Origin: Candidatus Gastranaerophilales bacterium
GTDB taxonomy: Bacteria > Cyanobacteriota > Vampirovibrionia > Gastranaerophilales > UBA9971
Assembly (NCBI GenBank): GCA_028278605.1
Contig: JANQEB010000025.1
Location: forward strand, 1 to 47,150
Length of the DNA stretch: 47,150 nt
Direction: 5' to 3'
The notes below the pieces were generated by a model, which did no database searches, had not been told where the DNA came from, and worked only from the letters and a program-made list of their open reading frames with translations. The position numbers and the translations under genes were made by a program. Positions 10,016 to 36,189 of this stretch are shown one piece after another. Position 1 is the first letter of the stretch. Every line of letters starts with the position of its first letter.

Positions 10016-10037
10016 TTTTACTTTTATATATGTAAGT

Positions 10038-10063: not shown

Positions 10064-10076
10064 GCCTTGACCCACC

Positions 10077-10139: not shown

Positions 10140-10192
10140 TGGGCATTACCTCCTTTTGTTTTGGATTTCCTCTGCTACCACAGGGAAGTTTC

Positions 10193-10276: not shown

Positions 10277-10283
10277 TGGCGTT

Positions 10284-10333: not shown

Positions 10334-10417
10334 AAAGCCTTATATATTTTACAAAATTTATAACCTGTCCCATCTAGTCTATAGTCGCCAACTCGACACA
10401 CTGTCGTACATTTTTGG

Positions 10418-11242: not shown

Positions 11243-11701
11243 TTGGATACAGAATTTGAAAGGTTTGATCACTTCCTAAATTTGATAGGGGTTAATAAGA
11301 GGGTTTTGTCTGTGATGATAGGGAAAAACATCACCTATGTTTCCAAGGTACACAAAAACAGGTCTGAACTTCCTAGCTCAATCGTTTCATTCTTAGAGGA
11401 AAGATATTCTTTAAATAGACAATGGCTTACCCATGGCATTGGGCAACCTCTTATCGTGAAAGATCAAACATTGTCTCAGAAAATAGTCCTATGTTTCAAG
11501 TGCACTAATCGGATTTTCTCAAATTTGCTTGTAGTTAGAGGTAATAACTATCATGAGTATTGCTATATTGGTAAGAGGTGTGCATATTGCCGCGAAGTGG
11601 GACCGGTTTATCAGAAAAATTTATGTAAAAAATGCCTAATGTCCAGACTATCAGAAGTTAGGAATATTATGAACGAATCGCACGCATTGGCTACAAGATG
11701 A
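11243..11701 (+). CDS. Phage CI-repressor-like HTH protein with a Cys-rich C-terminus
   Basis: TTG start 7 nt after TAGGAG. HTH segment KRVLSVMIGKNITYVSKVHKN ending in the NRQWLTHGIG signature. Four CxxC-type pairs at the C-terminus. Confidence 0.55.
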   Translation: MDTEFERFDHFLNLIGVNKRVLSVMIGKNITYVSKVHKNRSELPSSIVSFLEERYSLNRQWLTHGIGQPLIVKDQTLSQKIVLCFKCTNRIFSNLLVVRGNNYHEYCYIGKRCAYCREVGPVYQKNLCKKCLMSRLSEVRNIMNESHALATR

Positions 11702-12576
11702 ATATTGTTGAAAAGATAGAATACTATTTGTATCGTTTACGGTGGTGGTTGGGATTCAGAACACACCTTGATATTGAGTTGAACAATGACTGTAATCATA
11801 GGTGCGTGATGTGTTGGTGGGGTGCCCCAGGTGGGCCAGGTTTTGAAAAAGGTCAAATGAAACTTGCACAGGCTGTTAGGTATTTAATTGAAGGCCGAAT
11901 TCATGGTTATGTGTCAGTAAAGTGCAACTTTAGAGGTGAGCCCACCTTGTATAAAGACTTGGTTCATTTTGTTAAGAAGGCTAAGAATTTGGGTTATACA
12001 GATATAATGATGAACTCAAATGGAGTCTTAATGAAAGATAAGTTTGCATCTCTCAGAGATGCGGGGTTAACAACCATAATAATATCTTTGGGTGCGATAG
12101 ACAAGGACGCTTACTCTAAATTGCACAAGGTTAAAGACAAGCATTACTACAGGCTACATGAATCATTAGAATACATGCACGAAAACCAAGGCAATGTCAA
12201 AGTCAAATTAAATTGCCATGAATCAAAAACTAGTGATTTTGACTATTTTTGGATAAAGAGAAAATATCCTAATTTTTTTATAGTTAAACGGCATTTAATG
12301 GAGAGAGAAGGCGAAGACTTGTCTATTCCGATGATTAGAGAAAGAAAAAAGATGTGTCCCCATCTCAAAAGGAGAATGCTAATTACGCAAAACGGGAAGT
12401 TTTATCCATGTTGCATGGCGTATAATGAACCAGATGATATATTGCTTGGCTACAATTTTGAGGATGCTTTAAAGAATAGGAAACAATTAATTAAGGCGTA
12501 TAGAGAAGGTATACTCCTTCCATCATGTGTGAAATGCCCAAGCCAGGATGTATACAAGGTGAAGGTTTCAATATGA
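11698..12576 (+). CDS. Radical SAM enzyme with a SPASM/twitch-like C-terminal domain
   Basis: CNHRCVMC matches CX3CX2C. C-terminus CPHLKRRMLITQNGKFYPC matches CX12GX4C, followed by CVKC. Confidence 0.8.
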   Translation: MNIVEKIEYYLYRLRWWLGFRTHLDIELNNDCNHRCVMCWWGAPGGPGFEKGQMKLAQAVRYLIEGRIHGYVSVKCNFRGEPTLYKDLVHFVKKAKNLGYTDIMMNSNGVLMKDKFASLRDAGLTTIIISLGAIDKDAYSKLHKVKDKHYYRLHESLEYMHENQGNVKVKLNCHESKTSDFDYFWIKRKYPNFFIVKRHLMEREGEDLSIPMIRERKKMCPHLKRRMLITQNGKFYPCCMAYNEPDDILLGYNFEDALKNRKQLIKAYREGILLPSCVKCPSQDVYKVKVSI

Positions 12577-13874
12577 AAACTGCTGTCATTATATGTGTTA
12601 GGTCTGGGAGTAATCGTATTGAAAACAAATTGCTCGCCACTGTGAAGAGTGGTGACTTCCTTCGCTTAACTCTAGAAGAATGTATAGAGAGGGTCTCTGG
12701 CTTTGATGTAATATTAGCCATCCCGGAAGGTGATCCAATACAAGATGCCTTAATTGGGAATTCTAATATTTATGATATATTTACTGGGAATCCAAGCTCG
12801 CCATTGCATAGAATGTGGTACGCGGCCATCGCTAATAGTGTAGATACTATAATAAGGGTTACTGCTGATGATATCTTTGTAGACAGTGAATTGCTTAGAA
12901 AGCAACTAGCTTACCACCATAAGCAGAATAACGATTACACGTATATGGGGAATTGCCCCCAGGGGGTGGCTGCTGAAATAATATCTTTCAAGGCTCTTGA
13001 TAAAATAGCAACTGAGCATGATGAGCCAATTGAATTTACGTCTTATTATTTAAAAAAACCAGGATTTAAGTATAGTGAATATGTTCCACCTAAAGAATAT
13101 CAGCACCGGTTTAGACTTGAGCTGGATTATCCAGAGGACTTAACCCTAATTAGGGTTATTTATTCTTTACTTGGCGATAATTTCGGGACTCTGGATATAA
13201 TAAATTTACTTAAAAGGCACCCTGAGTTAATCGATATTAATAGACTGCCATTGATAACGTTTTACACATGCAACAAGAACTATGGTAAATACATAAGAGA
13301 GTGCATCTTATCAGTAGTTAGCCAGGGTTTGTTTGATCATTCTGAGTACATAATCTTGGATGATAAATCAACCGATGATAGTACGGCTGTAATACTTGAA
13401 ACGATTTCAGGGCTGCCAGAACATCAAAAGTCTCGGATTAGGGTATACAGAAACCCTGAGAACCTGGGCCTTTCTCAGTCTTCAAACAAGTGCCTACATC
13501 TAGCTAAAGGTAGATATGTAATGAGAGTTGATTCTGATGATTACTTACTTCCTGGCGCTGCCAATAGGATGTTAATTAATTTGAAACATGATTTTGGGGG
13601 CATAGTTTCGGGTTACACAAGGGATGGAATGGAATGCAAAGAAAAGCACCTTCATTCAGGATGCGCATTGCTTGAAAAGAGGCTGGCTTTAGAATTGCAG
13701 TATAAAGAAAACCCAGGTTACGGCGCAGCATTTATGAAAAGATTTGAAGAGAAATATAAGGTCGGGTTTATTGAAGAACCTTTATGGCATTATAGAAAAC
13801 ATGCAAATTCAATAAAGGCAAAAAACGGTGACATGACTATGACATCATTAAACCCAGCGGAGGCAGGAAAGTGA
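12573..13874 (+). CDS. Fusion of a cytidylyltransferase (NeuA/SpsF/KdsB-like) with a family-2 glycosyltransferase
   Basis: ATGA overlap start. N-terminus AVIICVRSGSNRIENK...IIRVTADDIFVD. C-terminus ITFYTCNKNYGKYI...ILDDKSTDDS...RVDSDD (DXD). Confidence 0.75.
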   Translation: MKTAVIICVRSGSNRIENKLLATVKSGDFLRLTLEECIERVSGFDVILAIPEGDPIQDALIGNSNIYDIFTGNPSSPLHRMWYAAIANSVDTIIRVTADDIFVDSELLRKQLAYHHKQNNDYTYMGNCPQGVAAEIISFKALDKIATEHDEPIEFTSYYLKKPGFKYSEYVPPKEYQHRFRLELDYPEDLTLIRVIYSLLGDNFGTLDIINLLKRHPELIDINRLPLITFYTCNKNYGKYIRECILSVVSQGLFDHSEYIILDDKSTDDSTAVILETISGLPEHQKSRIRVYRNPENLGLSQSSNKCLHLAKGRYVMRVDSDDYLLPGAANRMLINLKHDFGGIVSGYTRDGMECKEKHLHSGCALLEKRLALELQYKENPGYGAAFMKRFEEKYKVGFIEEPLWHYRKHANSIKAKNGDMTMTSLNPAEAGK

Positions 13875-14731
13875 AAGTAATGATAACAGGAAGTGAAGGA
13901 TTTGTGGGTAAGGCACTCAAACAAAGACTCAAGTCTTTAGACCACGAGGTTATTGATTTTGATTGGAAGGTCTACAGAAATGATTTAGTTGAAGATGTGA
14001 ATATACTAAGCTATAAAATTGGAGAGTCTGGCATGGTTATTCACTCAGCAGCTATAGCAGATTTGAATATTGTAGAAAAGGACCAGGATCAAGCATTCCA
14101 CACTAATGTAGAAGGGACTTATAATGTTGTGAAGTATTGCAGAATGCACGAAAAACCAATGATTTATATTTCAACATGCTGTGTCTATGGGGATGCGCAT
14201 AAAAATAATTATATTGTTCATGAGGGGACAAACCCCGAGCCTATAGAATTTTACGCACGCACAAAATACGCAGCAGAGCCAATTGTCCAAGAGCTAGACA
14301 GGCATGTAATATGTCGGTTAGGGACAGTTTACGGACCAGGAATGAGGCCCGCACTTTTTAACTATAAAATATTGGACTGTGCTTTGAATAATAAAGAATT
14401 TGTAATTAATGGTGATGGGCATCATTCAAGGTTTTATATTTTTATAGACGATTTAGTTGATGCGCTTGTTTCCACAATAACCAAGTTTCCGAATAAAGAA
14501 ATTTTAAATTTGTGCGGAGAAGAGAAAGTCTCTTTGAATAAAGTTTTATCAATAGTGTCAGAAATAACAGGTAAGGATTTAAAATATACACATGGTCCAG
14601 CTAGGCACTTAGGCGATGTAGATGAAAACATGAATAATATAAAAACACAAGAGTTAATTGATTGGATCCCTAAAACCTCATACAAAGAAGGCATGATTAA
14701 AACGAAGGAGCACTTTTGGCCCAATCTGTAA
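13871..14731 (+). CDS. NAD-dependent sugar epimerase/dehydratase (extended SDR)
   Basis: GSEGFVG Rossmann motif and YARTK (YxxxK) catalytic motif. Confidence 0.8.
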   Translation: MKVMITGSEGFVGKALKQRLKSLDHEVIDFDWKVYRNDLVEDVNILSYKIGESGMVIHSAAIADLNIVEKDQDQAFHTNVEGTYNVVKYCRMHEKPMIYISTCCVYGDAHKNNYIVHEGTNPEPIEFYARTKYAAEPIVQELDRHVICRLGTVYGPGMRPALFNYKILDCALNNKEFVINGDGHHSRFYIFIDDLVDALVSTITKFPNKEILNLCGEEKVSLNKVLSIVSEITGKDLKYTHGPARHLGDVDENMNNIKTQELIDWIPKTSYKEGMIKTKEHFWPNL

Positions 14732-14994
14732 TTACAACTAATCTTGAGGATTTTGAAAAGAAGTTGCTTTCTATTCAGATACCCAATCTCTTAAGACTAA
14801 TTGAGGGCATCGCTAAGTTAGTTAGAACGGCTAGTTTAGATAAGAGCTTGCCGGATGAATGCATATTGGACTTGCTTAGGAAGGAAACAAAGATAACTGC
14901 AGAACTAATGAGGCGAGGTTATTTAAAAAAAGAAGAATACCAGCAATTTGAGGCATGGCGTAAGGGACTTGGATATAAGAAGAGGTTTTATTGA
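14716..14994 (+). CDS. Hypothetical protein
   Basis: TTG start 7 nt after GAAGGAG. Lies within the sugar operon. Confidence 0.4.
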   Translation: MAQSVITTNLEDFEKKLLSIQIPNLLRLIEGIAKLVRTASLDKSLPDECILDLLRKETKITAELMRRGYLKKEEYQQFEAWRKGLGYKKRFY

Positions 14995-15701: not shown

Positions 15702-15710
15702 GAGTTTAAG

Positions 15711-17102
15711 ATGAGAGAACCTATAAAATGTTCAATATGTGATTCAGAAGATTGGCATAATTTAGATAATTTGAGAGACCCGAAATATTGGTATAACCAA
15801 AATATGATTGAACTTCATAATGATTACAAGACTGACCCTGGTCAATTTGATGTTGATGTCAGGGATGGCAAGGTTAGGTTTAACCCGATTGGGTTCAAGG
15901 TATGTAAATCTTGTGGCTATTTAACATATGATTACCCTGAAAATATCGAAGATCAATACGATAAGCAGAGAGACTTTATCAGGGTAATGAATATTGTAAC
16001 AAATAATAGAAAAATAAGAAAGCATGAAAAATTCTTAAAAGAGATTTTTGATGAATTGTCGCCGTCTCAGAATGGCAGAGGATTTTCGTCGAAAGTCTTA
16101 GATGTCGGGTGCGCCCAAGGTACTTTTTTAAAGTACATAAAAGATCGTTGCAATTTGGATAATAGCAATGTCTTTGGAACAGAGTTTTCAAGCGCAGCCA
16201 GAGAATTCGGGAAAAATTACTATGGTCTAAATATAGTCAAAGATATCTCTCAGGTAGATAAATCCGAAAGATTTGATCTAATTTCATATTATCATGTTAT
16301 CGAACATGTGGAGCATCCAGATAGGGAACTTTTGAGAATTAGAAATTATCTAAAAAAAGATGGTTATTTATACATGTCTATACCTCATTGGTGTGAAAGA
16401 CTGGAAGAGGCTAGCGGTGCTATTTGTGACTCATTTGAAAATCTTTACCACTTGAACCATATAAATTGTTTTACATTTCATTCATTCGAGAACCTCATAA
16501 AGAAGTGCGGATTTGAAATCGTTAAATCTGATGACCAGATGTATGGCTATACTGTTTTATGCAAGATGGTCGATATCCCTGAAAAATTTAAGCCTATCCA
16601 GGAAAATTACAAGGAGATTATCAAAAGCCTAAAATCCCAAAAAGAAGCTATCAACATGTTCGTTCAAAAGAAATATGATGAAGCGCTAAAAGTTTACAAG
16701 AATTTTCCAGATGCTTACATTATGAAGTCTATCGATCAAAGGAATAATAAAAGCTTCGAAATGCAAGACCAAATATTAGTAGAAGGGTTGAAGAATTGCA
16801 GAGACTCTCTTAAAATAAGAGAACAGAGGGCAGCTATAAGAATGCAATGGGACGGAAATGTCGAGGGAGAATTTGGGGTTTACACAAATAGAGTCAAAGA
16901 GGCTGAACACATACTCACGGCTTTATTAGAAGAGCATCCCTCAGAACAATATTATTTCTCCTTAGCTGTAATTGAAGGCAAATACAAAAAAGACTACGGG
17001 AAGGCCATTAAGTACTTAGAGGAAGTTATTGAAATCAACCCCATGAGAATAGGCGAATGCATGAATATGGTTGGTCAATTTTATAGCAGGGGGACGACAT
17101 GA
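15711..17102 (+). CDS. Class I SAM-dependent methyltransferase with an N-terminal zinc ribbon and a TPR-like C-terminus
   Basis: AGGAG RBS. Motif I VLDVGCAQGTF. CSIC...CKSCG. Helical-repeat C-terminal third. Confidence 0.7.
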   Translation: MREPIKCSICDSEDWHNLDNLRDPKYWYNQNMIELHNDYKTDPGQFDVDVRDGKVRFNPIGFKVCKSCGYLTYDYPENIEDQYDKQRDFIRVMNIVTNNRKIRKHEKFLKEIFDELSPSQNGRGFSSKVLDVGCAQGTFLKYIKDRCNLDNSNVFGTEFSSAAREFGKNYYGLNIVKDISQVDKSERFDLISYYHVIEHVEHPDRELLRIRNYLKKDGYLYMSIPHWCERLEEASGAICDSFENLYHLNHINCFTFHSFENLIKKCGFEIVKSDDQMYGYTVLCKMVDIPEKFKPIQENYKEIIKSLKSQKEAINMFVQKKYDEALKVYKNFPDAYIMKSIDQRNNKSFEMQDQILVEGLKNCRDSLKIREQRAAIRMQWDGNVEGEFGVYTNRVKEAEHILTALLEEHPSEQYYFSLAVIEGKYKKDYGKAIKYLEEVIEINPMRIGECMNMVGQFYSRGTT

Positions 17103-27354: not shown

Positions 27355-27833
27355 TGGCTATAAAAGGGATAGGTCTAGAGTACGATTTAACTCTAAAACC
27401 ACAGGGTAGACTGTTAACGAATACTTCGCAATATTTAGTAGTTGGCATGTCACCAACATCAACGAATGCTGATTTCTCTGCATATTTAACAAATGCAGGT
27501 TCGGCAACAGCGGACACTATAACAGCCAGAAACGCTATTGGCATCAACCAAACTGAACAATTGAGCGCAAGTTCACAAGACTGTGCTGTAAGGTTGCTTG
27601 GTGTATCTAAAGCTAAATGTGCAGCTTCGATTCCAGCGGGTGCGGTTGTCCAGGCTTATGAAGGTGCTTCAACCACTACATTTGCAGGTCATATCGTTAC
27701 TGCCACTGAGCACACGGCAACGGGTACAGCAGCGGTAAATGGCGTCATATTAGGTCGTGCGTTAGAGAAAGGCTCAACTAATACAGTTATTTCAGTCTTT
27801 CTTAATCCACATAGGCACGACGTGGTTAGTTAA
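27354..27833 (+). CDS. Possible head decoration or accessory capsid protein
   Basis: TAATG overlap. Ala/Thr/Ser-rich, 159 aa, immediately upstream of the capsid gene. Confidence 0.35.
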   Translation: MAIKGIGLEYDLTLKPQGRLLTNTSQYLVVGMSPTSTNADFSAYLTNAGSATADTITARNAIGINQTEQLSASSQDCAVRLLGVSKAKCAASIPAGAVVQAYEGASTTTFAGHIVTATEHTATGTAAVNGVILGRALEKGSTNTVISVFLNPHRHDVVS

Positions 27834-27844
27834 GGAGTTTAATT

Positions 27845-28771
27845 ATGGAATCATCAAGACGAATAAGCAAAGCTTTAACGAATGTTTCTGTAAGATATAA
27901 GAACGATAGCTTTATCGCAAACGATATCTTAAGAGACGTCATGGTCGTCAATAAGTCGGATCAATACTATGTCTATAGTAACGATTTTAGAATTGAAGAG
28001 ACTAGGCGAGCGAATAAAGCCCCATCAGGTCAAGTGACTTGGACTAACTCTCTAAGCTCTTACAGCTTAGATGTTCATTCATTGCATGACATTATTACAG
28101 AGCAAGATATTAGAAACACTGAAACGCCATTGCAGGCTGAGGCGGATTCTACTGAGTATATCACAGAGAAAATCCAGCTCAGAATGGAAAAAGACGCGGC
28201 AGACTTATTATTTACAACAACATCTTTCTCTAATAACACTACAATTGCAACTGCGACCACTTGGAAAAACACAACTACTAGCGCGCCAATTCAGAATGTA
28301 CTTTCTGCTACGGCTAAGATTAAAGCTAGTGGAGGTGGGACGCCAAATGAGGCAGCTACCAATTTAAATGTTATTCATGCATTGAAAGAAAATGCTAACA
28401 TTTACGAAAGAATCCAATATGTAGAGCGTGCAATTTTAACGCCTATGCTTTTGGCTTCTTTATTTGATTTAAGCAAGATACACGTAGGTGATGCTGTTTA
28501 CAACGCAAATAAAGAAGGTCAAGCGCAATCTCTTACTAACTTATGGGGAGACGATTTCCTTATGGGTAACTTTGCAAAGAGGCCGGGATTAAAGACACGT
28601 ACTACAGCAGCAATGTTGCGATGGTCATTGTACAAGAAGCCATGGCAAGTTAAGCGATGGAGAGATGAAGACAGAGATGGGACTAAAATTGAGGTCACAA
28701 CTGGCTATGTGCCCAAATTGATCGCAACTGCGTCCGGGTATCTGTTCAAAGCCGTTACCACATCGTCATAA
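27845..28771 (+). CDS. Major capsid protein
   Basis: AAGGAG RBS. 308 aa. Position after the protease/scaffold. N-terminal pattern typical of HK97-fold capsid families. Confidence 0.7.
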   Translation: MESSRRISKALTNVSVRYKNDSFIANDILRDVMVVNKSDQYYVYSNDFRIEETRRANKAPSGQVTWTNSLSSYSLDVHSLHDIITEQDIRNTETPLQAEADSTEYITEKIQLRMEKDAADLLFTTTSFSNNTTIATATTWKNTTTSAPIQNVLSATAKIKASGGGTPNEAATNLNVIHALKENANIYERIQYVERAILTPMLLASLFDLSKIHVGDAVYNANKEGQAQSLTNLWGDDFLMGNFAKRPGLKTRTTAAMLRWSLYKKPWQVKRWRDEDRDGTKIEVTTGYVPKLIATASGYLFKAVTTSS

Positions 28772-28780
28772 GGAGCATAT

Positions 28781-29137
28781 ATGTTTAATAAAAAAGATGA
28801 GTCGGCGGGTGAAAGCCCGTCAAAGGCAAAAGGCGAAGAAAAAGTATCTGTTGGCAGCAAAGAGATTGATAAAGCTTTAGAAAATGAATCTAAGCGTGTT
28901 GCCAAACAGTACAGAGAGGCTTTTAAGAAGATCTCTATCGGTAAAGAAAAGCTTAAATTAGGCAATAAGTCTAAGATCAAGGTTGTCGAAACTACTGAGT
29001 ATTACATTAAGTCAGACGCAAAAAGTGCAAAAGAAATGACTTTCGATGTAATTGAGGATGGCAAAAAGGTCAAGAAGAAGGCTAAAGTAAAATTACTCTC
29101 TAAAAAGAGTAGACTTAAGGGTTTTCTTAGGGGCTAA
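28781..29137 (+). CDS. Lysine-rich hypothetical head-module protein
   Basis: AAGGAG RBS. Open frame. Confidence 0.45.
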   Translation: MFNKKDESAGESPSKAKGEEKVSVGSKEIDKALENESKRVAKQYREAFKKISIGKEKLKLGNKSKIKVVETTEYYIKSDAKSAKEMTFDVIEDGKKVKKKAKVKLLSKKSRLKGFLRG

Positions 29138-29143
29138 AATGTT

Positions 29144-29620
29144 ATGCCTTATTCAGAAGCTACGGCAACTATTTCACTATTGCCCGGTATGCCTCAAACG
29201 AGCGCATCTGCCGGGTACAGTTTAAATGTCAGCTTACTGACTGATCATATAACGAGAGCTGATAATTTAATCAACGCAAAGATAGCTAGCAGATACGATA
29301 TCTCTAGCTTTTCTACTAATCCATCTTTACTGATTCTGCTTAGCCAGGATATTTCCAGTTACTATCTAATGCGGTCTCAGTATTCAAGCGATGATCAGAA
29401 TTTAAATGAATGGACTATGAAGTTCAAAGAGTCTATCGCTATACTAGATCAAATCCGTAATGGTGACATGGATTTAGTCGGGGAAGATTCAGCATTGATC
29501 TCTGAAGACAACAGAAAAGACACAATCACTAGCTCTACAGAAGATTTTGACCCAACGTTTAATGAAGGTCCAGGCCTCAATCAGCAAATCGATTCTACAA
29601 AGTTGGATGGTTTGCTATGA
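29144..29620 (+). CDS. Head-tail connector (Mu gp36/DUF1320-like)
   Basis: ITRADNLINAKIASRYDIS pattern and position. Confidence 0.45.
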   Translation: MPYSEATATISLLPGMPQTSASAGYSLNVSLLTDHITRADNLINAKIASRYDISSFSTNPSLLILLSQDISSYYLMRSQYSSDDQNLNEWTMKFKESIAILDQIRNGDMDLVGEDSALISEDNRKDTITSSTEDFDPTFNEGPGLNQQIDSTKLDGLL

Positions 29621-29997
29621 TAGAGGTTAGAGGAGTGAAAGAAGCTGTGGACCGGATAGAAAAAATATCCAGATTTGAAAATCTTAACATGGGCGTAGTA
29701 GCTGCAAAAATGCATAAAGATGTTATGGAGCACTTTAAGGCAGAGCAAGGCCCGGAAGGTAGCTGGGAACCAATAGAGAGAACTGGTAAAATTCTACAAG
29801 ACACAGGGCGCCTTCGGGCTTCTATCAAGAAAACAAGCAAAAAGCATGAAGCACAGGTCGCCACTAATGTAATATATGCAGCAACGCATAATTTTGGGGA
29901 TGACAAAAGAAACATAAAAAAAAGGGAGTTTATGTATTTATCAGACAAGTCTATAGAGGATATTATTAAATATTTAGAGGGTAGGTCAGATAAATGA
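29617..29997 (+). CDS. Virion morphogenesis / tail completion protein (Mu gpG-like)
   Basis: ATGA overlap. GSWEPIERTGKILQDTGRLRASI...NVIYAATHNFGD signature. Confidence 0.6.
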   Translation: MIEVRGVKEAVDRIEKISRFENLNMGVVAAKMHKDVMEHFKAEQGPEGSWEPIERTGKILQDTGRLRASIKKTSKKHEAQVATNVIYAATHNFGDDKRNIKKREFMYLSDKSIEDIIKYLEGRSDK

Positions 29998-30491
29998 AAA
30001 TTGATTCTTTAACATCTTCCCTTGTTTCATTGATGGAATCAAATAATACTATAACTTCAGGAGGTTTAAGTAATGGTCTATTAGATAATAAGAAAATAAC
30101 AACATTTCACAAAGGCATTGAGAACACGCATGTTGACTACCCCATCCCTAAGACTCTTTTCCCGTATGTATTTGTCGAGGCTGTTGAATCAGAGTACCAG
30201 TTTAATCAGCTTGGTGTCAATTCTAGCAGAGATATAGATATTCTATGGGATATAGTGGGCTGTACAATGTATGGTCAAGGTTCTGGGACTGGAAAGGTGG
30301 CAAGAGAAAATGCAGACACTCAAGCGTTAAAACTTGCGGGAAACATTGAAGACTTTGTGGCAAATAATATTAGACTTGGTGGTATAGTACAATGGTGCTT
30401 TGTCAGAAGGTCTGAATATAATGTCCGATCTAAGGACAATACGTATCAAACAACAACTAAGGTTAGAATTGAGGCTAGGAGAAAAACATGA
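29994..30491 (+). CDS. Neck/tail-terminator-position hypothetical protein
   Basis: ATGA overlap. The call rests on position only. Confidence 0.4.
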   Translation: MKIDSLTSSLVSLMESNNTITSGGLSNGLLDNKKITTFHKGIENTHVDYPIPKTLFPYVFVEAVESEYQFNQLGVNSSRDIDILWDIVGCTMYGQGSGTGKVARENADTQALKLAGNIEDFVANNIRLGGIVQWCFVRRSEYNVRSKDNTYQTTTKVRIEARRKT

Positions 30492-31498
30492 TTTTATCAG
30501 AAGAAGAAGTTTTACAACAATCGCGCACAGCTTTTAAACAGTGGGAAGATTTATGGCGTACAAATTGTACAAAAAATGCAGAGATTATTAAATCGGGAAG
30601 AGCTATACCGCTCAGGAGTATAGCTTATTCCGGAATGGGAAAAACTGTAGTCTGTACGGCTATGGGGGCATCATTTCAAGATGATATCCATATTATTAAA
30701 AAATATCGAGGTAAAAGAGATTTTGATATTATAGCAGTCGATAAGTCTGCTATGCATTTACAAGATCATGGCATTAAGCCTGATTATGTGATTATAGCAG
30801 ATGCGTCTATTGGGTATAAGTGGATAGACGGGTATGACTCTACAGGTGTCACACTTTTGGCTAATGTAAACTCAAATCCAGAATGGGCTCTGAACTGGAA
30901 GGGCCCAATTGCCTATTTTGTGAATAAAGACAATATAGAGTCTGAAAAGATTTTCATGGAAATAAGCGGATGCAGAGAGCAGATTGCAGCAGCTTCCAAT
31001 GTCGGTAACGCTGCGGTGGTTGTGGCTACGTCTGTATTTGACTATGAAACTGTATTGCTATCGGGTTATGATTTTTCTTGGAATAAAAGATATTACGCTT
31101 TTTCTAAGTTCGATGCTGCTGAGAAACGTTCGTATATGTCTCACATGATATCTATTAATCACATGGGCGAAGTAGTGAATACCTCAAATAATCTACACTT
31201 TAGTTGTAGGTGGCTATCTGATTTCCTGAAAGTGGCCAAGAAAAATGTATTTATAGGCAATAAAAAGACGACTCTAAATGCTCCTTTTTTAGATCTTGAG
31301 AGACAATTGGCTATTTCCAGATGTAGACCTTTATCTAAGAGAGAAGTCGAGCATATTATTGAAAAGACTAAATTGGTGGCGATAGCTCCAAATGTCGCGG
31401 AACTTCAAAAGTTGCATGACGAAAATCCAAAAACGATGCTCAATAAGTATGTCGTTGAATTAATACCGGAGGAAATATGCGAAAGATTAAATTTGTAG
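30488..31498 (+). CDS. Maf / DUF115 (MptE-like) family protein; putative nonulosonic/ulosonic-acid glycosyltransferase
   Basis: VVCTAMGASF...FDIIAVDKSAMHLQDHGIKPDYVIIADAS...NVGNAAVVVATSVFDYETVLLSGYDFSW matches the GPSL / D..L...gI.PD / G.Df layout of the motility-accessory-factor domain. Confidence 0.6.
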   Translation: MILSEEEVLQQSRTAFKQWEDLWRTNCTKNAEIIKSGRAIPLRSIAYSGMGKTVVCTAMGASFQDDIHIIKKYRGKRDFDIIAVDKSAMHLQDHGIKPDYVIIADASIGYKWIDGYDSTGVTLLANVNSNPEWALNWKGPIAYFVNKDNIESEKIFMEISGCREQIAAASNVGNAAVVVATSVFDYETVLLSGYDFSWNKRYYAFSKFDAAEKRSYMSHMISINHMGEVVNTSNNLHFSCRWLSDFLKVAKKNVFIGNKKTTLNAPFLDLERQLAISRCRPLSKREVEHIIEKTKLVAIAPNVAELQKLHDENPKTMLNKYVVELIPEEICERLNL

Positions 31499-31698
31499 AT
31501 AAGAGACCTTTAAGGTTTCCTAAGTTAACTTACTACCCTAATGGGTGTGTCCCGAAGGTGGGGGATATTTTAACAGTCACAGACAATGAAGCAAAGAAAT
31601 TATTAGCTAAAAAAAATGGTACTGTTCCTATGTTTGAAGAGGTGAAGGCCTCTAGAATTAGGAAAGAAGACCCAGTTCAGGAGGTAGACAATGGCTAA
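31477..31698 (+). CDS. Hypothetical protein
   Basis: GGAGGAAATATG start. Overlaps the 3' end of the Maf-like gene. Confidence 0.45.
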   Translation: MRKIKFVDKRPLRFPKLTYYPNGCVPKVGDILTVTDNEAKKLLAKKNGTVPMFEEVKASRIRKEDPVQEVDNG

Positions 31699-32719
31699 AG
31701 GTGATAACGCAAGGTTAGGGTATCAGTCTAGTGTAGGCTTGGCCGAAGAAACGACATTCGGCACAAAGGTTGATTCTTTCGATTATCTAGAGTTCATATC
31801 AGAATCTTTTAAGGTCGATAGAGAGTCTAGGAAGCTTGAAAGTATCAACACTGGGCGAAGTTTCATTAAAAGAGTTCAGTTAAATGAGACTGTCGAAGGT
31901 AGCCTAGAGGCCGAATTTAATCCAGCTTCAGACTTTGCAATCAAACTTATGAAGCAAGCCTTTGGGGGTACTGTTACAAGTGCGACACAAGCCTCTTCAG
32001 ATATCCTGCATACAATCAATGTTGGGGACATGGAATCGAATGCAGGCACATCTACTTCAAGCGATGTGAAAAGTTTAACATTCCAGGCAGATAAAGGCGG
32101 GACAGTTTATGATTATGTAGGCTGTCGAGTTAACTCTTTTACCCTTAAAGCCGAAGTCGGCGGAATGGTTATGATGACTGCAGAGGTAATCGGTAAGTCT
32201 GGATCACTTTCTTCAAGTACACCAACGGCTGTATTTTCTGACATTATACCTGCTGATTATTTAGGTGTAACTTTTGCTTTAGGTGACTCTTTAGGCAATG
32301 TTTCCGCTGAGACGGTACAGTCTTTTGAGTTTTCTATCAACAATAACCTTGATGGAGAACAAAGGGGCCTTGGCTCAAGAAGTCGAAACATAATCCCACC
32401 TGTACGTCGAGAGGTTTCTTTGAAAGTGACACAAAGAGCTGATACGACCACAAATTACAGTCAATTTCTTGCTGAGACAATATCTGCCATTAAGATAACA
32501 ATGGATACTACACAAACCATTACATCAAGCACTGGTTCAGAGACATACCAGTGTCAATTAGAGTTCCCCAGATGCTATACCAAAGGTCCAGCACAGCCGG
32601 AGGTTGGTGACGCGGGTGTTCTAAGTTATGACATTGAATATGAACCTATATCTGATAACACGACCACTGCATACGATGTAAGGGCTTTAGTGTATAACGC
32701 AACAGCAAACTATTTCTAA
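31691..32719 (+). CDS. Major tail (tube) protein
   Basis: GGAGG RBS. 342 aa. Immediately upstream of the chaperone pair and tape measure. Ser/Thr-rich loops. Confidence 0.55.
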   Translation: MAKGDNARLGYQSSVGLAEETTFGTKVDSFDYLEFISESFKVDRESRKLESINTGRSFIKRVQLNETVEGSLEAEFNPASDFAIKLMKQAFGGTVTSATQASSDILHTINVGDMESNAGTSTSSDVKSLTFQADKGGTVYDYVGCRVNSFTLKAEVGGMVMMTAEVIGKSGSLSSSTPTAVFSDIIPADYLGVTFALGDSLGNVSAETVQSFEFSINNNLDGEQRGLGSRSRNIIPPVRREVSLKVTQRADTTTNYSQFLAETISAIKITMDTTQTITSSTGSETYQCQLEFPRCYTKGPAQPEVGDAGVLSYDIEYEPISDNTTTAYDVRALVYNATANYF

Positions 32720-32737
32720 AAAACGGAGGTTAGGAAC

Positions 32738-33094
32738 ATGCTTTTAGATTTAAACAAAGTCGCACCAGAGGATAAGAAAATTGAGCTAGGTGATAAAAAA
32801 TATATCATTCCAGGTCAATTACCGGCTAGTGTAATGCTTAAGGTTATGAGAATCCAGAACGATATAGGTGAAAACCCAGGAGACCCAGATTTAATTGAGC
32901 AATGCATGAAAATTGTTCATGAAGTTTTTCAGATCAATCAGCCAGATTTAGCATATGAGGATTTTATGAAGAAAGTTTCTTTTGATCAAGCGACTTTAAT
33001 CATTGGGTTTTTGTATGAAAGTCCTGGCGTGAAGGAAATTGAAAAAAAGCCAGAAGGGGAGGACAATCCCCAGGCCGCGAAGTCAGTATCATAA
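32738..33094 (+). CDS. Tail assembly chaperone (gpG-like, zero-frame product)
   Basis: GGAGG RBS. Acidic 118-aa protein directly upstream of the tape measure. Contains the slippery heptamer. Confidence 0.7.
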   Translation: MLLDLNKVAPEDKKIELGDKKYIIPGQLPASVMLKVMRIQNDIGENPGDPDLIEQCMKIVHEVFQINQPDLAYEDFMKKVSFDQATLIIGFLYESPGVKEIEKKPEGEDNPQAAKSVS

Positions 33095-33252
33095 CCGTCA
33101 TCGGGAACTACGCTCGATTTTTTAGAGTCGATCCATCCAGGGTTTTGGAAACGCCTTGGCTTTTGTTTATAGGGCTTATAGATTATATGACGGTTGCAAT
33201 GGAAAAAAAGGAGAGAAGGCAGAGAGAGCTAGAGAAAAAATATGGCAAGTGA
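32738..33252 (+). CDS. Tail assembly chaperone -1 frameshift fusion (gpGT-like)
   Basis: After A AAA AAG (33043-33049), I checked every -1 frame codon. The frame stays open for 68 codons to TGA 33250-33252, overlapping the tape-measure start. Confidence 0.65.
33043..33049 (+). promoter_or_regulatory. Programmed -1 ribosomal frameshift slippery heptamer A AAA AAG
   Basis: In phase as GA-A AAA AAG relative to ATG 32738. Confidence 0.65.
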
Positions 33253-35422
33253 AATTGCATTAAAGATTTCAGCGGACATTAAGAATGCTCAAGTTGCCTT
33301 GAAAAGACTTCAAGGTAACTTGGGCGACTTAGGCTCTCAAGTTAAAAGAACAAATCCTGATTTACAGAAATTTAAAGACAATTGGAAAAGTATTGGTCTT
33401 ACTTTTGTAGGACTTGGCTTTGTTTTTGCTAAAATGATTCAGAAGGCTTCTGATCTTCAAGAGACTACTAATAAATTTAGTGCTGTATTTAAAGACGTTA
33501 GCGATGAGGCTGAAAAGATGGCAAGAGATCTCCAGGACGCCTATGGGTTAGGTGTTCTTGAATCGAAAAAGCTTCTTTCAAATACTGCTGACTTATTGAC
33601 CGGATTTGGCATACAAGGTAAAGAGGCATTAAGCCTTTCTGCTAAAGTTCAGAAACTATCCGTTGATTTAGCATCATTTACTAACATACAAGGTGGTGCA
33701 TCAAGAGCATCGGAAGCATTAACCAAAGCGATGTTGGGCGAAAGGGAAATGACAAAAGCCTTGGGAATTGTCATTAGAGAAAAAGATGTCTTAGAACAAG
33801 CCTCTTTGATAATGAAGGAAAGTAATGTTGAAATGACATTACAGCAAGCAAAAGCGGAAGCTGTTTATCAAATCGCACTTAGCCAGTCAGTCAATGCAAT
33901 TGGGGATTACCAAAAAACCCAGCACACATTTGCTAATCAATGGCGTTTATTTGGTGCTTTGACTGAAGATGTAACGGCCCAGCTTGGTGAAGCATATCTG
34001 CCAACGGCAAGAAATGTTGTGAGTTCTGCAAATAATTTATTGAAGGCTTTCAGGGGATTGAATCCTGAAACTAAGCAGCTAGTCGCAAACATTGGGGCAG
34101 TGGGTGCTGTAATGGGCACATTAGGCGCTATAGCTGTCACGTTAGGTACAGGTGTCGCTTTAATTACCGGCGCTTTCATTGCTCTAGGTGCTGCAATTGT
34201 TGCGGTCGCCGTTCATTGGGATGAGATAGTCGCAACATGGGAATTCGGAATTGCTAAAGTAAAAAGAGAATTTCAATTATTATGGTCAGGTATTAAAATT
34301 GGTTTTTTGTTCATAGCAAAGACAGCCCAAGAGATGGCAGCTAAAATATTTCAGCCTTTAGTTAATGGAATTAATGTTACAATACAAGGGTATAACAGAT
34401 TAACAGGCTCTTCGATATCTTCTTTAAAACTAATGGCAGGAGCTAGTGCAAAAGCATTAGGTCGACAGTTGTCTGCTGAGAAAAGAAAATTTGCATCATT
34501 AAAAAGATCATCTAAACAGGAAATTGATGCCCTCGTGAAGTTGAATAAAGCTAAAAGAAAGCTAGAGCAAGACGCCACTAGTTCTACTTTAAAAAATGCA
34601 AAAAATGAATCAATGCAAAAACAGCAGATTCAAAAGTCAGGCGAAGAAGGAAGTAAGGTTTCACAAGTACAGTTTCTTGAAGCCATGCGGACAGAGAGAC
34701 AGTTAAATAGAGAGATTGAGGCAGAAGAAGATGAATTTGAAAAGGAAATTCTGAAAGCCAAGCTTGCAGAAACGCAGCAGATTATAGCCGATGCTAATAG
34801 GTCAGAGGTTGAAATGAATAAGGTCAAACGCGACTTAATGGCACAGGAAGACGCCTTGGCTTGGAAGCAAGCTGGTCAAGGACACCTCGAGTTGTCAAAT
34901 TTCGTCCAAGGTTCATTGAATCAAAATATTGGTTGGCAATTTAGGTTATTTAAAGCTCTAGCTATTCAAACAGCTATTATCGATACATGGGCAGCAGCAA
35001 CCGCAGCACAAAAAGCAATGTCGGGGATTCCTTTTGTAGGACCAGCTTTAGGCATAGCAGCAGCAGGTGTGGCTATAGCTGCGGGGATTGCAAGAGTTGG
35101 CAAAATAAAAGCTACTAAACCACCTAAAGCTGCGACAGGCGCACTAATTAGGGGGTCTGTGTCAGGGTCACCAATTATAGCAGGTGAAGGCGGTCGAGAT
35201 GAGGCGATTATTCCACTTCAGAATAGGGAGGCTATGAATAGATTGGCCGGTGCCGGCGCTGGGATGGGACAAACAATAAATCTTACAATAAACGTGGAAA
35301 ATTCTGTTGGGGACATAACAGATGACATGATAAGCAAAATCGACGATGGCTTGCAAACTCTTTTTAAAGAAAGACGAGGTTCCGTATTTGCTGAAGAAAT
35401 ATTACAGGAGGCCGAAACATGA
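33242..35422 (+). CDS. Tape measure protein
   Basis: 726 aa. Helical with Gly/Ala-rich TM-like stretches. Canonical position after the G/GT pair. Confidence 0.85.
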   Translation: MASEIALKISADIKNAQVALKRLQGNLGDLGSQVKRTNPDLQKFKDNWKSIGLTFVGLGFVFAKMIQKASDLQETTNKFSAVFKDVSDEAEKMARDLQDAYGLGVLESKKLLSNTADLLTGFGIQGKEALSLSAKVQKLSVDLASFTNIQGGASRASEALTKAMLGEREMTKALGIVIREKDVLEQASLIMKESNVEMTLQQAKAEAVYQIALSQSVNAIGDYQKTQHTFANQWRLFGALTEDVTAQLGEAYLPTARNVVSSANNLLKAFRGLNPETKQLVANIGAVGAVMGTLGAIAVTLGTGVALITGAFIALGAAIVAVAVHWDEIVATWEFGIAKVKREFQLLWSGIKIGFLFIAKTAQEMAAKIFQPLVNGINVTIQGYNRLTGSSISSLKLMAGASAKALGRQLSAEKRKFASLKRSSKQEIDALVKLNKAKRKLEQDATSSTLKNAKNESMQKQQIQKSGEEGSKVSQVQFLEAMRTERQLNREIEAEEDEFEKEILKAKLAETQQIIADANRSEVEMNKVKRDLMAQEDALAWKQAGQGHLELSNFVQGSLNQNIGWQFRLFKALAIQTAIIDTWAAATAAQKAMSGIPFVGPALGIAAAGVAIAAGIARVGKIKATKPPKAATGALIRGSVSGSPIIAGEGGRDEAIIPLQNREAMNRLAGAGAGMGQTINLTINVENSVGDITDDMISKIDDGLQTLFKERRGSVFAEEILQEAET

Positions 35423-36189
35423 ACATGGAGTTTCTTGAAAGGAATTATATTAATACTACAACTTCAGTCAATGCAAGTGCAGGCACTTCGACAGTTTCAT
35501 ATTTGTTTGATCGTAAGTTGTCTACAAATTACACTGCTTCCCCCACAGTTACTATTCATTTTACTATAAATAACACAATTGATAGAATTGTATTCCAGGA
35601 AATAAATTTAAAAGCGTTTACAATTAAGCATGTTACCGGTACGTCATTATTTTTAAAGTCAGGCTCAGACACAACAACAGCAGAATTCTCGAGCAATAGT
35701 TCTACTAGTCTATATTTAGTTCTAGGATCAATTACAACTGTGAACACATTGACATTTATTGGATCTAGTGCAATAACAGGTGGTCTTATACAGATAGGTC
35801 AAATGTGGATGACAAAAAACATATATGAGCTAGAAAGAAATCCTGAAATATCTGATTTTGACATTGCTCGTAATAGGAAAGAGTATAAACATAAAATGGC
35901 GGGTGGAGGAACCGCGTTATACACAATCGAAGAGAAATATTTTGAGGGCAGAATGTCATGGGACTTCATAAGTTCTTCAGCAACAACATCACTTGAAAGT
36001 GTTTATGATCAGAAGGATGGGATTGTCTATGTTCCGTTCCCGACGCTGACTTCAGACTGGACTGGTCAAAAGTTAGCGGTAGCATATGAAGTTGTATGGC
36101 ATGGTGACTTTAGATTTGATCTTCAAAGTGACAATGACAGGGGGTCAGGATACTCAGGCGCAATTAGGCTTGATGAAACACCAAAATGA
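35419..36189 (+). CDS. Distal tail protein (Dit-position)
   Basis: ATGA overlap with the tape measure. 256 aa, beta-rich. Confidence 0.5.
   Translation: MNMEFLERNYINTTTSVNASAGTSTVSYLFDRKLSTNYTASPTVTIHFTINNTIDRIVFQEINLKAFTIKHVTGTSLFLKSGSDTTTAEFSSNSSTSLYLVLGSITTVNTLTFIGSSAITGGLIQIGQMWMTKNIYELERNPEISDFDIARNRKEYKHKMAGGGTALYTIEEKYFEGRMSWDFISSSATTSLESVYDQKDGIVYVPFPTLTSDWTGQKLAVAYEVVWHGDFRFDLQSDNDRGSGYSGAIRLDETPK

Follow-up and report, generated by a model that had tools for sequence, protein, structure and literature searches.

The closest described relatives of the gene reported here are the Maf (motility accessory factor) enzymes, flagellin nonulosonic-acid O-glycosyltransferases represented by the proteins of Magnetospirillum magneticum (5MU5), Clostridium botulinum (CbMaf) and Geobacillus (GkMaf). 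Every Maf enzyme characterised so far has flagellin as its target, which it modifies ahead of filament assembly; Maf genes lie in flagellar glycosylation islands, linked to flagellin genes, a NeuB-type synthase and a cytidylyltransferase. Published assays of Maf are described in 10.1101/2020.06.03.131540; in E. coli, Maf enzymes can draw on CMP-Kdo and place Kdo on Ser/Thr. Residues E324 and D415 of the M. magneticum enzyme are reported to be essential for activity, CbMaf needs a conserved Ser (S334), and the central domain of Maf has been reported to resemble the sialyltransferase Cst-II in its donor-binding region. A second relative is the archaeal 6-hydroxymethyl-7,8-dihydropterin pyrophosphokinase MptE (8SD5), a single-domain protein of ∼215–240 residues found in a pterin/methanopterin context.

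To our knowledge, glycosylation of virions has been documented experimentally only in a few mycobacteriophages, in which it weakens antibody neutralisation. The enzymes concerned are conventional nucleotide-hexose glycosyltransferases. In cluster O mycobacteriophages and their relatives they modify capsid and tail tube proteins and are accompanied by a methyltransferase (Freeman et al. 2023, summarised in PMC11600133), and the summary names them plainly ‘glycosyltransferases’. The idea of a virion that glycosylates itself comes from these phages. The gene arrangement at the present locus is analogous to the phage-encoded transferases and methyltransferase that this summary describes; the enzyme, however, is of the DUF115/Maf type, whose relatives use CMP-activated acidic sugars, and unlike the mycobacteriophage enzymes it is encoded directly between neck and tube genes, in a lineage of uncultured phages. 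The original prediction, which knew of no described Maf-based virion glycosylation, agrees with the literature searched, in which no Maf-type enzyme was found in a phage structural module; papers matching both ‘DUF115’ and phage proved to be prefix matches to DUF1156.

The window, by which we mean the whole stretch of 47,150 nucleotides that was analysed, contains the following neck and tail genes.

29144..29620, forward strand: head-tail adaptor, Mu gp36-like (Pfam PF07030, phrog_195)
29617..29997, forward strand: tail completion/Neck1 protein (Pfam Phage_tail_S, phrog_26)
29994..30491, forward strand: 165-aa neck or terminator-like gene, the stop codon of which overlaps the start of the next gene (ATGA)
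30488..31498, forward strand: mini-Maf gene, ATG start, 336 aa; putative DUF115/Maf_flag10-type CMP-ulosonic-acid protein O-glycosyltransferase
31477..31698, forward strand: conserved 73-aa ORF with its own GGAGG ribosome-binding site, overlapping the mini-Maf and tube genes
31691..32719, forward strand: tail tube protein, the proposed acceptor (Pfam PF18906, Phage_tube_2, 126 bits; phrog_290, tail)

The ORF at 30488..31498 is as originally described, in its coordinates, its length and the three quoted blocks of its translation (KTVVCTAMGASF, FDIIAVDKSAMHLQDHGIKPDYVIIADAS and SNVGNAAVVVATSV...LLSGYDFSW). Its start codon, which overlaps the preceding stop, follows the sequence GAGGCTAGGAGA, and the ORF is a real late gene, translationally coupled. 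The product matches Pfam PF01973 (MptE-like/DUF115/Maf_flag10) with E = 1.6e-19 and 70.7 bits, the gathering score being 34.6. This match, which is far above chance, runs from residue 28 to residue 200 and takes in model positions 4–170 of 171; all 37 homologues but one fragment carry a precomputed match to the same family. PF01973 is the sole Pfam domain detected. The Maf N-terminal domain PF20157 (Maf_flag10_N) is absent from the protein, and its AlphaFold (AF2) model has no C-terminal helical/TPR domain of the kind that binds the acceptor in Maf. For want of these two domains we call the protein mini-Maf and do not regard it as a canonical Maf.

The AF2 model (pLDDT 92.3, pTM 0.89) begins with one long helix, residues 5–35, followed by a Rossmann-like catalytic domain with a Maf-type extension and a small C-terminal α/β unit of ∼65 residues. 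A Foldseek search of the PDB with this model gave the Maf glycosyltransferase 5MU5 as the best match (E = 4.4e-10, 288 columns) and the HPPK structure 8SD5 as the second best (E ∼4e-6, TM-score 0.71 on the target). All matches at E < 1e-3 are DUF115 proteins, namely Maf (5MU5), the MptE kinase (8SD5/8SBU) and SteA (9HMZ). The sialyltransferases of families GT42 and GT29 (Cst-II, ST8SiaIII) show a distant likeness only: ST8SiaIII is a weak fold match (E = 1.3e-2) and Cst-II is not among the fold matches listed. Profile and structure searches thus both return Maf-fold similarity, and the assignment to the Maf/DUF115 family and fold is borne out by the PF01973 score, by 5MU5 as top fold match and by a profile built from the mini-Maf family. 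A single-sequence phmmer search of the PDB had a TAL-effector repeat as its sole match, which is spurious; the match to Maf came with the family profile.

That profile (A6) matches 5MU5 with E = 2.1e-20, covering Maf residues 250–517, and the archaeal MptE kinase with E = 1.2e-14 over profile positions 31–214 only. Judged by these alignments, the homology to Maf reaches beyond the core that mini-Maf has in common with the MptE kinase. With MptE, mini-Maf shares the Pfam family, the Rossmann-like core and the GxGxS and PD...D motifs, but the match does not go past the core and falls short of that to Maf, whose catalytic domain is followed by mini-Maf throughout its Maf-specific continuation. 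Proteins that carry Maf_flag10_N align over mini-Maf profile positions 5–300 at 120–180 bits per domain.

Residue counting along the profile alignment places Maf E324 on D105, which is invariant in the phage family, and Maf D415 (FGVDLG) on D195 of the GYDFSW motif, conserved in at least 90% of members, so that the equivalents of both essential Maf acids are kept. Some 15 other polar positions vary little or not at all, and such a dense set of conserved polar residues argues for an active enzyme. Where Maf-like proteins have the Ser of a GGSV motif, to which the required Ser of CbMaf may correspond, the phage family has an invariant Asn, N171. D85 aligns with an Asp of the MptE kinase at a position where M. 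magneticum Maf has Gly. In overall build, mini-Maf is at most half the size of Maf. The likeness to Maf would extend to chemistry, in which a CMP-ulosonic acid serves as donor for Ser/Thr of a protein that assembles into helical filaments; a tail tube protein is presumed to take the place of flagellin as acceptor, and the gene lies in a phage neck–tail operon rather than a flagellar glycosylation island. The window contains neither flagellar genes nor pterin genes.

The neighbours of the gene, the adaptor, Neck1, 165-aa and tube genes, confirm its location inside a neck–tail structural operon. The position of the 165-aa gene is conserved in the relatives in which tblastn detected it, and in two relatives that lack the enzyme (L086 and L090) this gene directly precedes the tube gene. 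A tube gene does lie downstream of mini-Maf, as originally predicted, but the ∼190-bp gap that was thought to separate the two is not empty, its 192 bp holding the 73-aa ORF. A profile of this ORF built from 16 loci recovers 55 ORFs in the same slot at E ≤ 10, with a deep clade at ∼1e-5, and neither Pfam nor PHROG has a family for it. Its single-sequence AF2 model (pLDDT 69) suggests, at low confidence, a β-β-α-β arrangement. We considered whether it could be a GlfM-like four-helix factor; the model, at its low confidence, is not helical, and no GlfM-like partner was seen beside mini-Maf. The 73-aa protein may work with mini-Maf as a partner or determinant of specificity, or may serve in tail assembly. 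Scans for promoters and terminators over positions 27000–35500 stayed at shuffle level, a result that is consistent with a single operon and is uninformative.

The Ser/Thr-rich strings of the tube protein are present, but they do not set the enzyme-bearing phages apart. The Ser/Thr fraction of the tube is marginally higher in these phages (0.20–0.24) than in relatives without the enzyme (0.15–0.21), and the two ranges overlap. Comparison of the tubes revealed neither an insertion nor a clear Ser/Thr enrichment specific to enzyme-bearing phages, and the tube loop GDMESNAGTSTS is confined to one subclade.

Comparisons with related phages show that mini-Maf is closely tied to the tail. In 36 of 38 loci the genes follow one another as capsid, adaptor, Neck1, 165-aa gene, mini-Maf, small ORF and tube. 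Mini-Maf lies immediately upstream of the tube gene in every one of 33 close tube homologues from IMG/VR, one of which was assigned its mini-Maf only through a second locus on the same contig; none of 34 more distant tube homologues is accompanied by one. In a mirror-tree analysis of pairwise distances, mini-Maf is correlated with the tube (r = 0.876; Mantel 0 of 2000) and with the capsid (r = 0.83), and its overall divergence equals that of both proteins. Across 24–51% identity, the catalytic-acid equivalents and the polar residues of the pocket are invariant, with the exception of the D195 position noted above.

Close relatives of mini-Maf form ∼77 sequence clusters, and 1,327 clusters match its profile at E < 1e-10. 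In phages with HK97-type or other heads, distant members likewise directly precede Phage_tube_2. Another is found directly after the capsid gene of an SU10-like podophage, in an island with CTP_transf_3, NeuB, acetyltransferase and methyltransferase genes, and a further distant mini-Maf gene overlaps a CTP_transf_3 gene; in L031 a CTP_transf_3 gene lies in the head module. The linkage to the tube, the co-divergence and the neighbours of the distant members strengthen the idea of virion glycosylation.

Some 13.4 kb upstream of mini-Maf ends a cassette of putative sugar genes, spanning 11698–17102.

11698..12576, forward strand: radical SAM/SPASM enzyme, first cassette gene (Pfam Radical_SAM and SPASM)
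12525..13874, forward strand: fusion of CTP_transf_3 (KdsB/NeuA family) and GT2 domains (Pfam); putative CMP-ulosonate synthetase and second transferase
13871..14731, forward strand: NAD-dependent SDR epimerase/reductase, RmlD/GalE-like (Pfam Epimerase, 111 bits, and RmlD_sub_bind; NCBIfam)
14716..14994, forward strand: conserved 92-aa cassette protein, with homologues at the same place in L039, L040, L044 and L123
14991..15701, forward strand: DAHP-synthase-like (type I-beta) PEP-aldolase (Pfam DAHP_synth_1); putative 3-deoxy-2-ulosonate-phosphate synthase
15711..17102, forward strand: Zn-ribbon, class I SAM methyltransferase and TPR protein, last cassette gene (Pfam Methyltransf_23 and TPR)

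Related phages keep the cassette genes in this order. The radical SAM/SPASM protein has weak similarity to the MoaA, viperin and spiro-SPASM families, the 92-aa protein has no family match in Pfam or PHROG, and the methyltransferase–TPR gene adjoins the TerL or portal gene in at least 8 related contigs. The CTP_transf_3–GT2 fusion is kept in 4 related phages, with invariant DxD motifs. The family profile of the aldolase matches DAHP synthases at ∼1e-26 and KDO8P synthases at ∼1e-5; its KPRTS motif is lost, while C8, H182, E208 and D218, which we take to be the metal ligands expected in metallo DAHP/KDO8P synthases, are invariant. The original prediction placed a CMP-sugar-acid module ∼13 kb upstream. 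The module is there, with a cytidylyltransferase, but the absence of NeuB from the cassette, unlike the NeuB linkage of Maf, means that this is not a nonulosonic (9-carbon) pathway, and with a DAHP-synthase-like synthase we also reject a strict sialic-acid or Kdo pathway. The DAHP-synthase-like enzyme and the cytidylyltransferase–GT2 protein may belong to an undescribed sugar acid pathway, and the product of the former could be a novel ulosonic acid of 7 or 8 carbons.

The cassette and mini-Maf occur on one contig in the window and in at least 3 relatives. One relative with mini-Maf, however, has no cytidylyltransferase–GT2, SDR or synthase gene across its readable upstream region and keeps only the radical SAM, 92-aa and methyltransferase–TPR genes, so that the cassette may serve another purpose. 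We therefore discarded the notion that the cassette is a constant companion of mini-Maf, and the system is not necessarily self-contained, as had been proposed. A TerL-based scan for the frequency of the cassette found mostly unrelated phages, with one informative contig (L123).

Taking together the fold, the homology, the catalytic residues, the position of the gene and its co-diversification, we infer that mini-Maf is a CMP-ulosonic-acid protein O-glycosyltransferase that acts on virion proteins, probably the tube, and give this reading a probability of roughly one half. The enzyme retains the catalytic DUF115/Maf_flag10 module and dispenses with the N- and C-terminal accessory domains, and it is expressed from the late structural operon, coupled in translation to the neck gene, the 73-aa ORF and the tube gene. 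During virion assembly it would move a CMP-activated 3-deoxy-2-ulosonic acid to Ser/Thr of a virion protein. Of the possible acceptors we favour the Phage_tube_2 tail tube protein, whose gene is the second one downstream; it could be modified before or during polymerisation, as is flagellin by Maf. In this phage the donor may be made or diversified by the upstream cassette: the aldolase would condense PEP with a sugar phosphate, the CTP_transf_3 domain would produce the CMP-sugar acid, which could then be tailored or extended by the GT2, SDR, radical SAM and methyltransferase activities. In relatives without the sugar genes, a CMP-ulosonic acid of the host, such as CMP-Kdo, might serve as donor. 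The proposal is weakened by several features of the locus: the tube has neither insertion nor Ser/Thr enrichment, mini-Maf has no known Maf acceptor-binding element and carries Asn in place of the GGSV Ser, and the cassette synthase, with KPRTS lost, is nearer to DAHP than to KDO8P or NeuB synthases. It is weakened also by the range of functions that the same fold supports, pyrophosphokinase activity in MptE and regulation of cell division in SteA among them.

Two of the alternatives deny mini-Maf a glycosyltransferase activity. Mini-Maf could be a small-molecule pyrophosphokinase or nucleotidyl transferase, like MptE or thiamine pyrophosphokinase, that supplies a late cofactor or modified nucleotide. 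PF01973 takes its name from the archaeal pterin pyrophosphokinase, that enzyme supplies the second-best fold match, and the family has the kinase Asp at D85. The Asp is found at this position also in proteins with the Maf N-terminal domain (AVDK, AVDT, AVDS), however, and both profile and fold matches to Maf are stronger and longer, running ∼100 residues past the kinase core. Pterin, folate and thiamine genes are missing from the context, in which virion and CMP-sugar genes are the recurrent neighbours, and we consider such an activity unlikely. Least probable, in our estimate, is a catalytically inert protein with a DUF115 fold, either a tail assembly factor, for example a tube chaperone or neck–tail joining factor, or a minor structural protein. 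The slot commonly holds tail assembly genes, mini-Maf is conserved to the same degree as the structural proteins, and the PDB lists SteA, which has the same fold, as a regulator of cell division, all of which would suit such a role. Against it stand the Maf catalytic-acid equivalents and the densely conserved polar pocket described above, and the tails of L086 and L090, which are encoded in the same adaptor, Neck1, 165-aa gene, tube order without mini-Maf; this tail architecture does not need it.

A different alternative accepts an active Maf-type glycosyltransferase and places its target in the host, as a flagellin, pilin, S-layer protein or cell-envelope glycan, the late modification of which could block superinfection or stop the trapping of released virions. 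The flagellin specificity of characterised Maf enzymes is in keeping with this, as is the GT2 domain of the cassette, of a kind used in polysaccharide synthesis, and nothing in the sequence identifies the acceptor. The gene is nevertheless coupled in translation within the neck–tail operon, not placed in an early or lysogeny region, and flagellar and pilus genes are absent from its vicinity. Across different head types and large divergence it always adjoins the tube gene on its upstream side, or follows the capsid gene in the podophage, and its divergence keeps pace with that of tube and capsid, which speaks against a host target since a host-directed enzyme is expected to track the host and not the tail module. 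We regard a host target as improbable, and prefer transfer to a virion protein.

More tentatively, and on balance with less than even odds, mini-Mafs could represent a widespread and undescribed ‘sialylation-like’ system of virions in uncultured tailed phages. A minimal DUF115 transferase, encoded beside the gene for a major filament or shell protein (Phage_tube_2 in siphophages, the SU10-type capsid in podophages), would cover tails or capsids in acidic sugars derived from CMP donors, either taken from the host (CMP-Kdo) or made by a cassette. If glycosylation of the virion by mini-Maf is correct, it would provide a viral counterpart of flagellin glycosylation and, in a Maf-type version, bring acidic sugars and a large number of environmental phages into the scope of virion glycosylation. 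Such sugars, whether Kdo-like or sialic-acid-like, alter surface charge, adhesion and recognition by the immune system and lectins. No Maf catalytic unit smaller than mini-Maf would then be known, the gene for its natural acceptor would lie close by, two genes further on, and the recognition of acceptors without a sequon, a question in the Maf field, could be tested by co-expression in E. coli. It might also offer a compact tool for placing acidic O-glycans on proteins or therapeutic phages, and a two-gene tool for protein O-ulosonylation.

Phages in GenBank gave no match to the mini-Maf protein by tblastn or to 24 kb of the window by megablast, PHROGs has no family for the protein, and PADLOC assigns it to no defence family. 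The window contains no tRNA genes. A scan of genome contigs matched one 4-kb contig, which is binned to a Phycisphaerae MAG. The IS1595 transposase shares no more than 47% identity with copies on plasmids of Bacteroides and Entomospira.

The ORF at 30488–31498 (+) is real as described in the original prediction: its 336-aa translation contains the three motif blocks quoted for it. The assignment to the Maf/DUF115 family also stands, since profile and fold searches both favour Maf. With PF01973 (MptE-like/DUF115; Pfam; cut-off 34.6) the protein scores 70.7 bits and covers nearly the full model, and a search of 5.8 billion proteins returned 37 homologues of ∼340 aa at 24–51% identity, many of them on contigs of 30–49 kb. 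Ten residues are invariant in the homologue alignment (W23, D105, W137, D148, N171, Y202, Y203, K213, L236 and W242) and ∼40 more are nearly so, among them D85, K86, N146, K147, N149, S170, N174, D195 and H219. As judged from this alignment, the conservation fits an enzyme pocket, not a scaffold.

In a confident alignment-based AlphaFold model (pLDDT 92.3, pTM 0.89), a long helix at the N-terminus is followed by a core of alternating β and α elements, and a small α/β unit forms the C-terminus. The model's top PDB fold match is the Magnetospirillum magneticum Maf glycosyltransferase 5MU5 (E = 4.4e-10, 288 columns), followed by the archaeal MptE pterin pyrophosphokinase 8SD5 (∼4e-6) and then SteA. 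The broad family profile A6 matches 5MU5 at E = 2.1e-20 over Maf residues 250–517, and the MptE kinase at 1.2e-14 over the core alone. By counting along the A6–5MU5 alignment, the catalytic residues Maf E324 and D415 (FGVDLG) correspond with D105 and D195 (GYDFSW) of the family; a preprint, citing the original structure paper, gives both Maf residues as critical for activity. Long proteins with a Maf N-terminal domain align to family profile positions 5–300 at 120–180 bits per domain, and Asp is frequent in them at the D85 position (AVDK, AVDT, AVDS), so that an apparent kinase-like feature of the phage protein falls away.

The Maf_flag10_N domain is absent in a Pfam search, the AlphaFold model has no helical or TPR C-terminal domain, no acceptor-binding module is recognisable in the protein, and the Ser of the Maf GGSV motif is replaced in the family by the invariant Asn171. 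Because of the missing N- and C-terminal domains and this replacement we name the protein mini-Maf, and describe it as a Maf catalytic module lacking the accessory parts. It belongs, like Maf, to the DUF115 superfamily and would work as a Maf does; unlike canonical Maf, it has neither accessory domains nor a flagellar context nor a linkage to NeuB, and is classed here as a new phage-borne variant, not Maf proper.

The mini-Maf ATG overlaps the stop codon of the 165-aa gene before it (ATGA), and a purine-rich Shine-Dalgarno sequence lies upstream. The predicted spacing before the tail tube gene holds at 192 bp, but is occupied by an overlooked 73-aa ORF (31477–31698), which has a GGAGG site of its own and shares sequence with the mini-Maf gene on one side and the tube gene on the other. 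Through these overlaps and separate ribosome-binding sites, the four genes spanning 29994–32719 are tightly coupled as a block. Scans of 27000–35500 for promoter-like and terminator-like sites gave frequencies no higher than those of shuffled sequence.

This arrangement is conserved. A scan of IMG/VR with the mini-Maf family alignment gave 36 loci, to which two were added (n = 38). Comparison of all window proteins with the 38 loci by tblastn shows a kept order of protease, capsid, adaptor, Neck1, 165-aa gene, mini-Maf, small ORF, tube, chaperone and tape measure, the mini-Maf gene adjoining the tube gene in 36/38. In a reciprocal scan with the tube alignment, with loci split by tube score, mini-Maf lies immediately upstream in 33/33 loci with tubes of at least 270 bits (in one, L053, cut at its 5′ end, the gene was seen via L016 on the same contig), and was found within 4 kb in 0/34 loci with tubes of at most 176 bits, even with the broader profile included. 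Two enzyme-less relatives, L086 and L090, have adaptor, Neck1, 165-aa gene and tube in order, which indicates that mini-Maf and the small ORF are an insertion into an architecture able to exist without them. Mini-Maf has co-diversified with its neighbours: in a mirror-tree comparison of pairwise distance matrices (22 non-redundant loci), its distances correlate with those of the tube at r = 0.876, a value reached by 0/2000 permutations, and with those of the capsid at r = 0.83 (tube versus capsid, r = 0.88). Mean distances are nearly equal (mini-Maf 0.60, tube 0.62, capsid 0.58). The gene is thus a stably inherited core of the structural module and no mobile accessory gene. In L090 (3290–4606), ∼100 aa are inserted into the tube at the position of the Ser/Thr-rich loop of the window tube, showing that this loop tolerates surface decoration domains.

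The upstream sugar cassette (11698–17102) comprises six genes:
11698–12576, radical SAM/SPASM enzyme
12525–13874, CTP_transf_3::GT2 fusion
SDR epimerase/reductase
92-aa protein
14991–15701, DAHP_synth_1-family enzyme
Zn-ribbon, methyltransferase and TPR protein

Their order is kept in related contigs at 26–49% identity, adjoining the TerL or portal gene, and cassette and mini-Maf share a contig in three relatives (L024/L039, L009/L040 and L042/L066). A profile of the 14991–15701 family finds type I-beta DAHP synthases (∼1e-26) ahead of KDO8P synthases (∼1e-5). In the alignment of these DAHP-synthase-like homologues C8, H182, E208 and D218 are invariant; we take these to be the metal ligands expected of metallo DAHP/KDO8P synthases. 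Where DAHP synthases have the phosphate-binding motif KPRTS, the enzymes of this phage lineage have a conserved GGGT(x)DRY segment; they are possibly a new substrate class in the DAHPS/KDO8PS family. With a cytidylyltransferase, a DAHPS-like synthase and no NeuB in the cassette, its product is plausibly a CMP-activated 3-deoxy-2-ulosonic acid of unspecified chain length. Of the CMP-sugar-acid module originally proposed, the cytidylyltransferase cassette is present; a sialic-acid-type sugar is rejected as its product.

Nor need the system be self-contained, as had been suggested. In L123:2275–4821 (IMGVR_UViG_3300027852_000100, the full 5′ part of the L003 contig), only the radical SAM/SPASM, 92-aa and methyltransferase-TPR genes precede TerS and TerL; the cytidylyltransferase-GT2, SDR and DAHPS-like genes are all absent. 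The sugar genes are thus optional and mini-Maf constant, and phages missing them would need a host donor. The remaining trio may form a functional unit of its own that received the sugar genes by insertion; one possibility is a system that modifies proteins or peptides and in which the small protein is the substrate or a partner. The NCBIfam 'spiro-SPASM protein' model (TIGR04321) matches the cytidylyltransferase N-domain of 12525–13874 at model positions 81–225 and the radical SAM/SPASM protein at model positions 232–502; on this similarity the two adjacent phage genes (11698–13874) may be the counterpart of one fused bacterial protein. Weak similarity to prokaryotic viperins (PADLOC pVip, 55 bits) is a further feature of the radical SAM protein, whose substrate could be a cytidine nucleotide or CMP-sugar.

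The family extends well beyond these phages. Among 1.84 billion cluster representatives, its profile finds 77 at E < 1e-30, 1,327 at E < 1e-10 and 7,612 at E < 1e-3. Genomic context was sampled for distant members of ∼300 aa. Three (P0102, P0105 and P0128) each have three neck-sized genes ahead of them and, behind them, one or two small ORFs and then Phage_tube_2; in one of the three phages an HK97-type protease and capsid stand in for the Mu-type head. Their tubes score 59–99 bits against the window-clade tube model, so the enzyme is patchy over the tube family, yet its slot is constant. In an SU10-like podophage, mini-Maf P0099 lies directly 3′ of the capsid gene, its neighbour instead of the tube, and heads an island before the adaptor gene (L118:1458–9355; JGI 3300047552 Ga0485239_001768), which contains:
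mini-Maf
138-aa ORF
CTP_transf_3
second MptE-methyltransferase fusion
hexapeptide acetyltransferase
methyltransferase
HNH gene
NeuB

The structural module of this podophage encloses, in this island, a complete nonulosonic-acid pathway together with two Maf-type enzymes. P0038 and the CTP_transf_3 gene upstream of it overlap, P0120 belongs to a tandem pair (L121:802–2776; 307 and 295 aa, with a 55-aa ORF between), and in the window's own clade the head module of L031 holds two methyltransferases and CTP_transf_3 (83.5 bits). Two complete DUF115 catalytic modules occur in some long cellular-type Maf proteins (981–1191 aa; P0135, P0157, P0170), and many ∼500-aa relatives are DUF115 fused to a class I methyltransferase. 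Uncultured-phage proteins in BFVD already carry the automatic label 'MptE-like'; among the papers searched, none on them was found. The finding is real and non-trivial, and the module widespread, conserved and uncharacterised.

We give even odds, a probability of about 0.5, that mini-Maf is a late-expressed, CMP-ulosonic-acid-dependent protein O-glycosyltransferase with a virion acceptor. The analysis establishes fold, homology, catalytic residues, gene position and co-diversification; glycosyl transfer, its donor and its acceptor are inferences. The enzyme would transfer the activated ulosonic acid late in infection, the donor being taken from the host where sugar genes are missing; CMP-Kdo, present in E. 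coli, is accepted by published Maf enzymes. The acceptor in siphophages would most probably be the tube protein, because there the mini-Maf gene is never parted from the tube gene. Counting against the tube, a comparison of tubes with and without mini-Maf found no features specific to enzyme-bearing phages; the missing acceptor-binding module, the Asn in place of the GGSV Ser and the role of the trio are further weak points of the glycosyltransferase reading.

A Maf-type enzyme directed at the host is unlikely given the gene's position and its co-evolution with structural genes. The MptE matches would suit a small-molecule pyrophosphokinase, an improbable reading because the Maf homology is stronger and longer and CMP-sugar genes are neighbours. 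Still more doubtful is an inert assembly factor, to which the place among structural genes might point, as the pocket residues are conserved and sister tails exist without the enzyme. The remaining probability belongs to functions not thought of. Virion glycosylation by phage-encoded enzymes is not without precedent: mycobacteriophages modify the proteins of their capsid and tail tube with glycosyltransferases and an O-methyltransferase of their own, as described in PMC11600133. The original idea of virion glycosylation holds in general, corrected as to sugar pathway, self-containment and the small ORF.

At 47 kb, the window represents all or nearly all of a tailed-phage genome, and almost every gene lies on the + strand:
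replication: HTH/DnaD-like protein, DnaB helicase
recombination: 43680–44453, Mgm101/Rad52-like annealing protein (148 bits); 45003–45890, PDDEXK DUF3799 nuclease
lysis: M15 endolysin
packaging: large terminase, T4-type
head: Mu-type portal fused to gpF, protease, major head protein
neck: head-tail adaptor, Neck1/tail-completion protein
tail: Phage_tube_2 tail tube, chaperone, tape measure protein

The 768-aa product of the portal gene (22390–24696) joins a Mu-type portal (PF06074) to a Mu gpF-like head morphogenesis domain (PF04233), a fusion kept in relatives such as L024 (772 aa) and L001 (765 aa). The early region (3243–6302) encodes a DUF6745 protein (3243–4502) and an SPFH/Band 7 protein (5364–6302), neither with an obvious phage role. 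An 89-nt direct repeat, 83% identical (8081–8169 and 10262–10350), flanks a 2.1-kb segment; both copies contain a CCTCC...GGAGG hairpin followed by a T-run, and a shorter, related third copy lies at 7945–7986. Within the segment are the sole clear minus-strand gene (8219–8752), whose 177-aa product carries a signal resembling that of lipoproteins (LLIAVGC), and an IS1595-family transposase gene (8980–9894; Pfam, 151 bits), so that 8081–10350 looks like a moron and an IS inserted into a duplicated terminator-like element.
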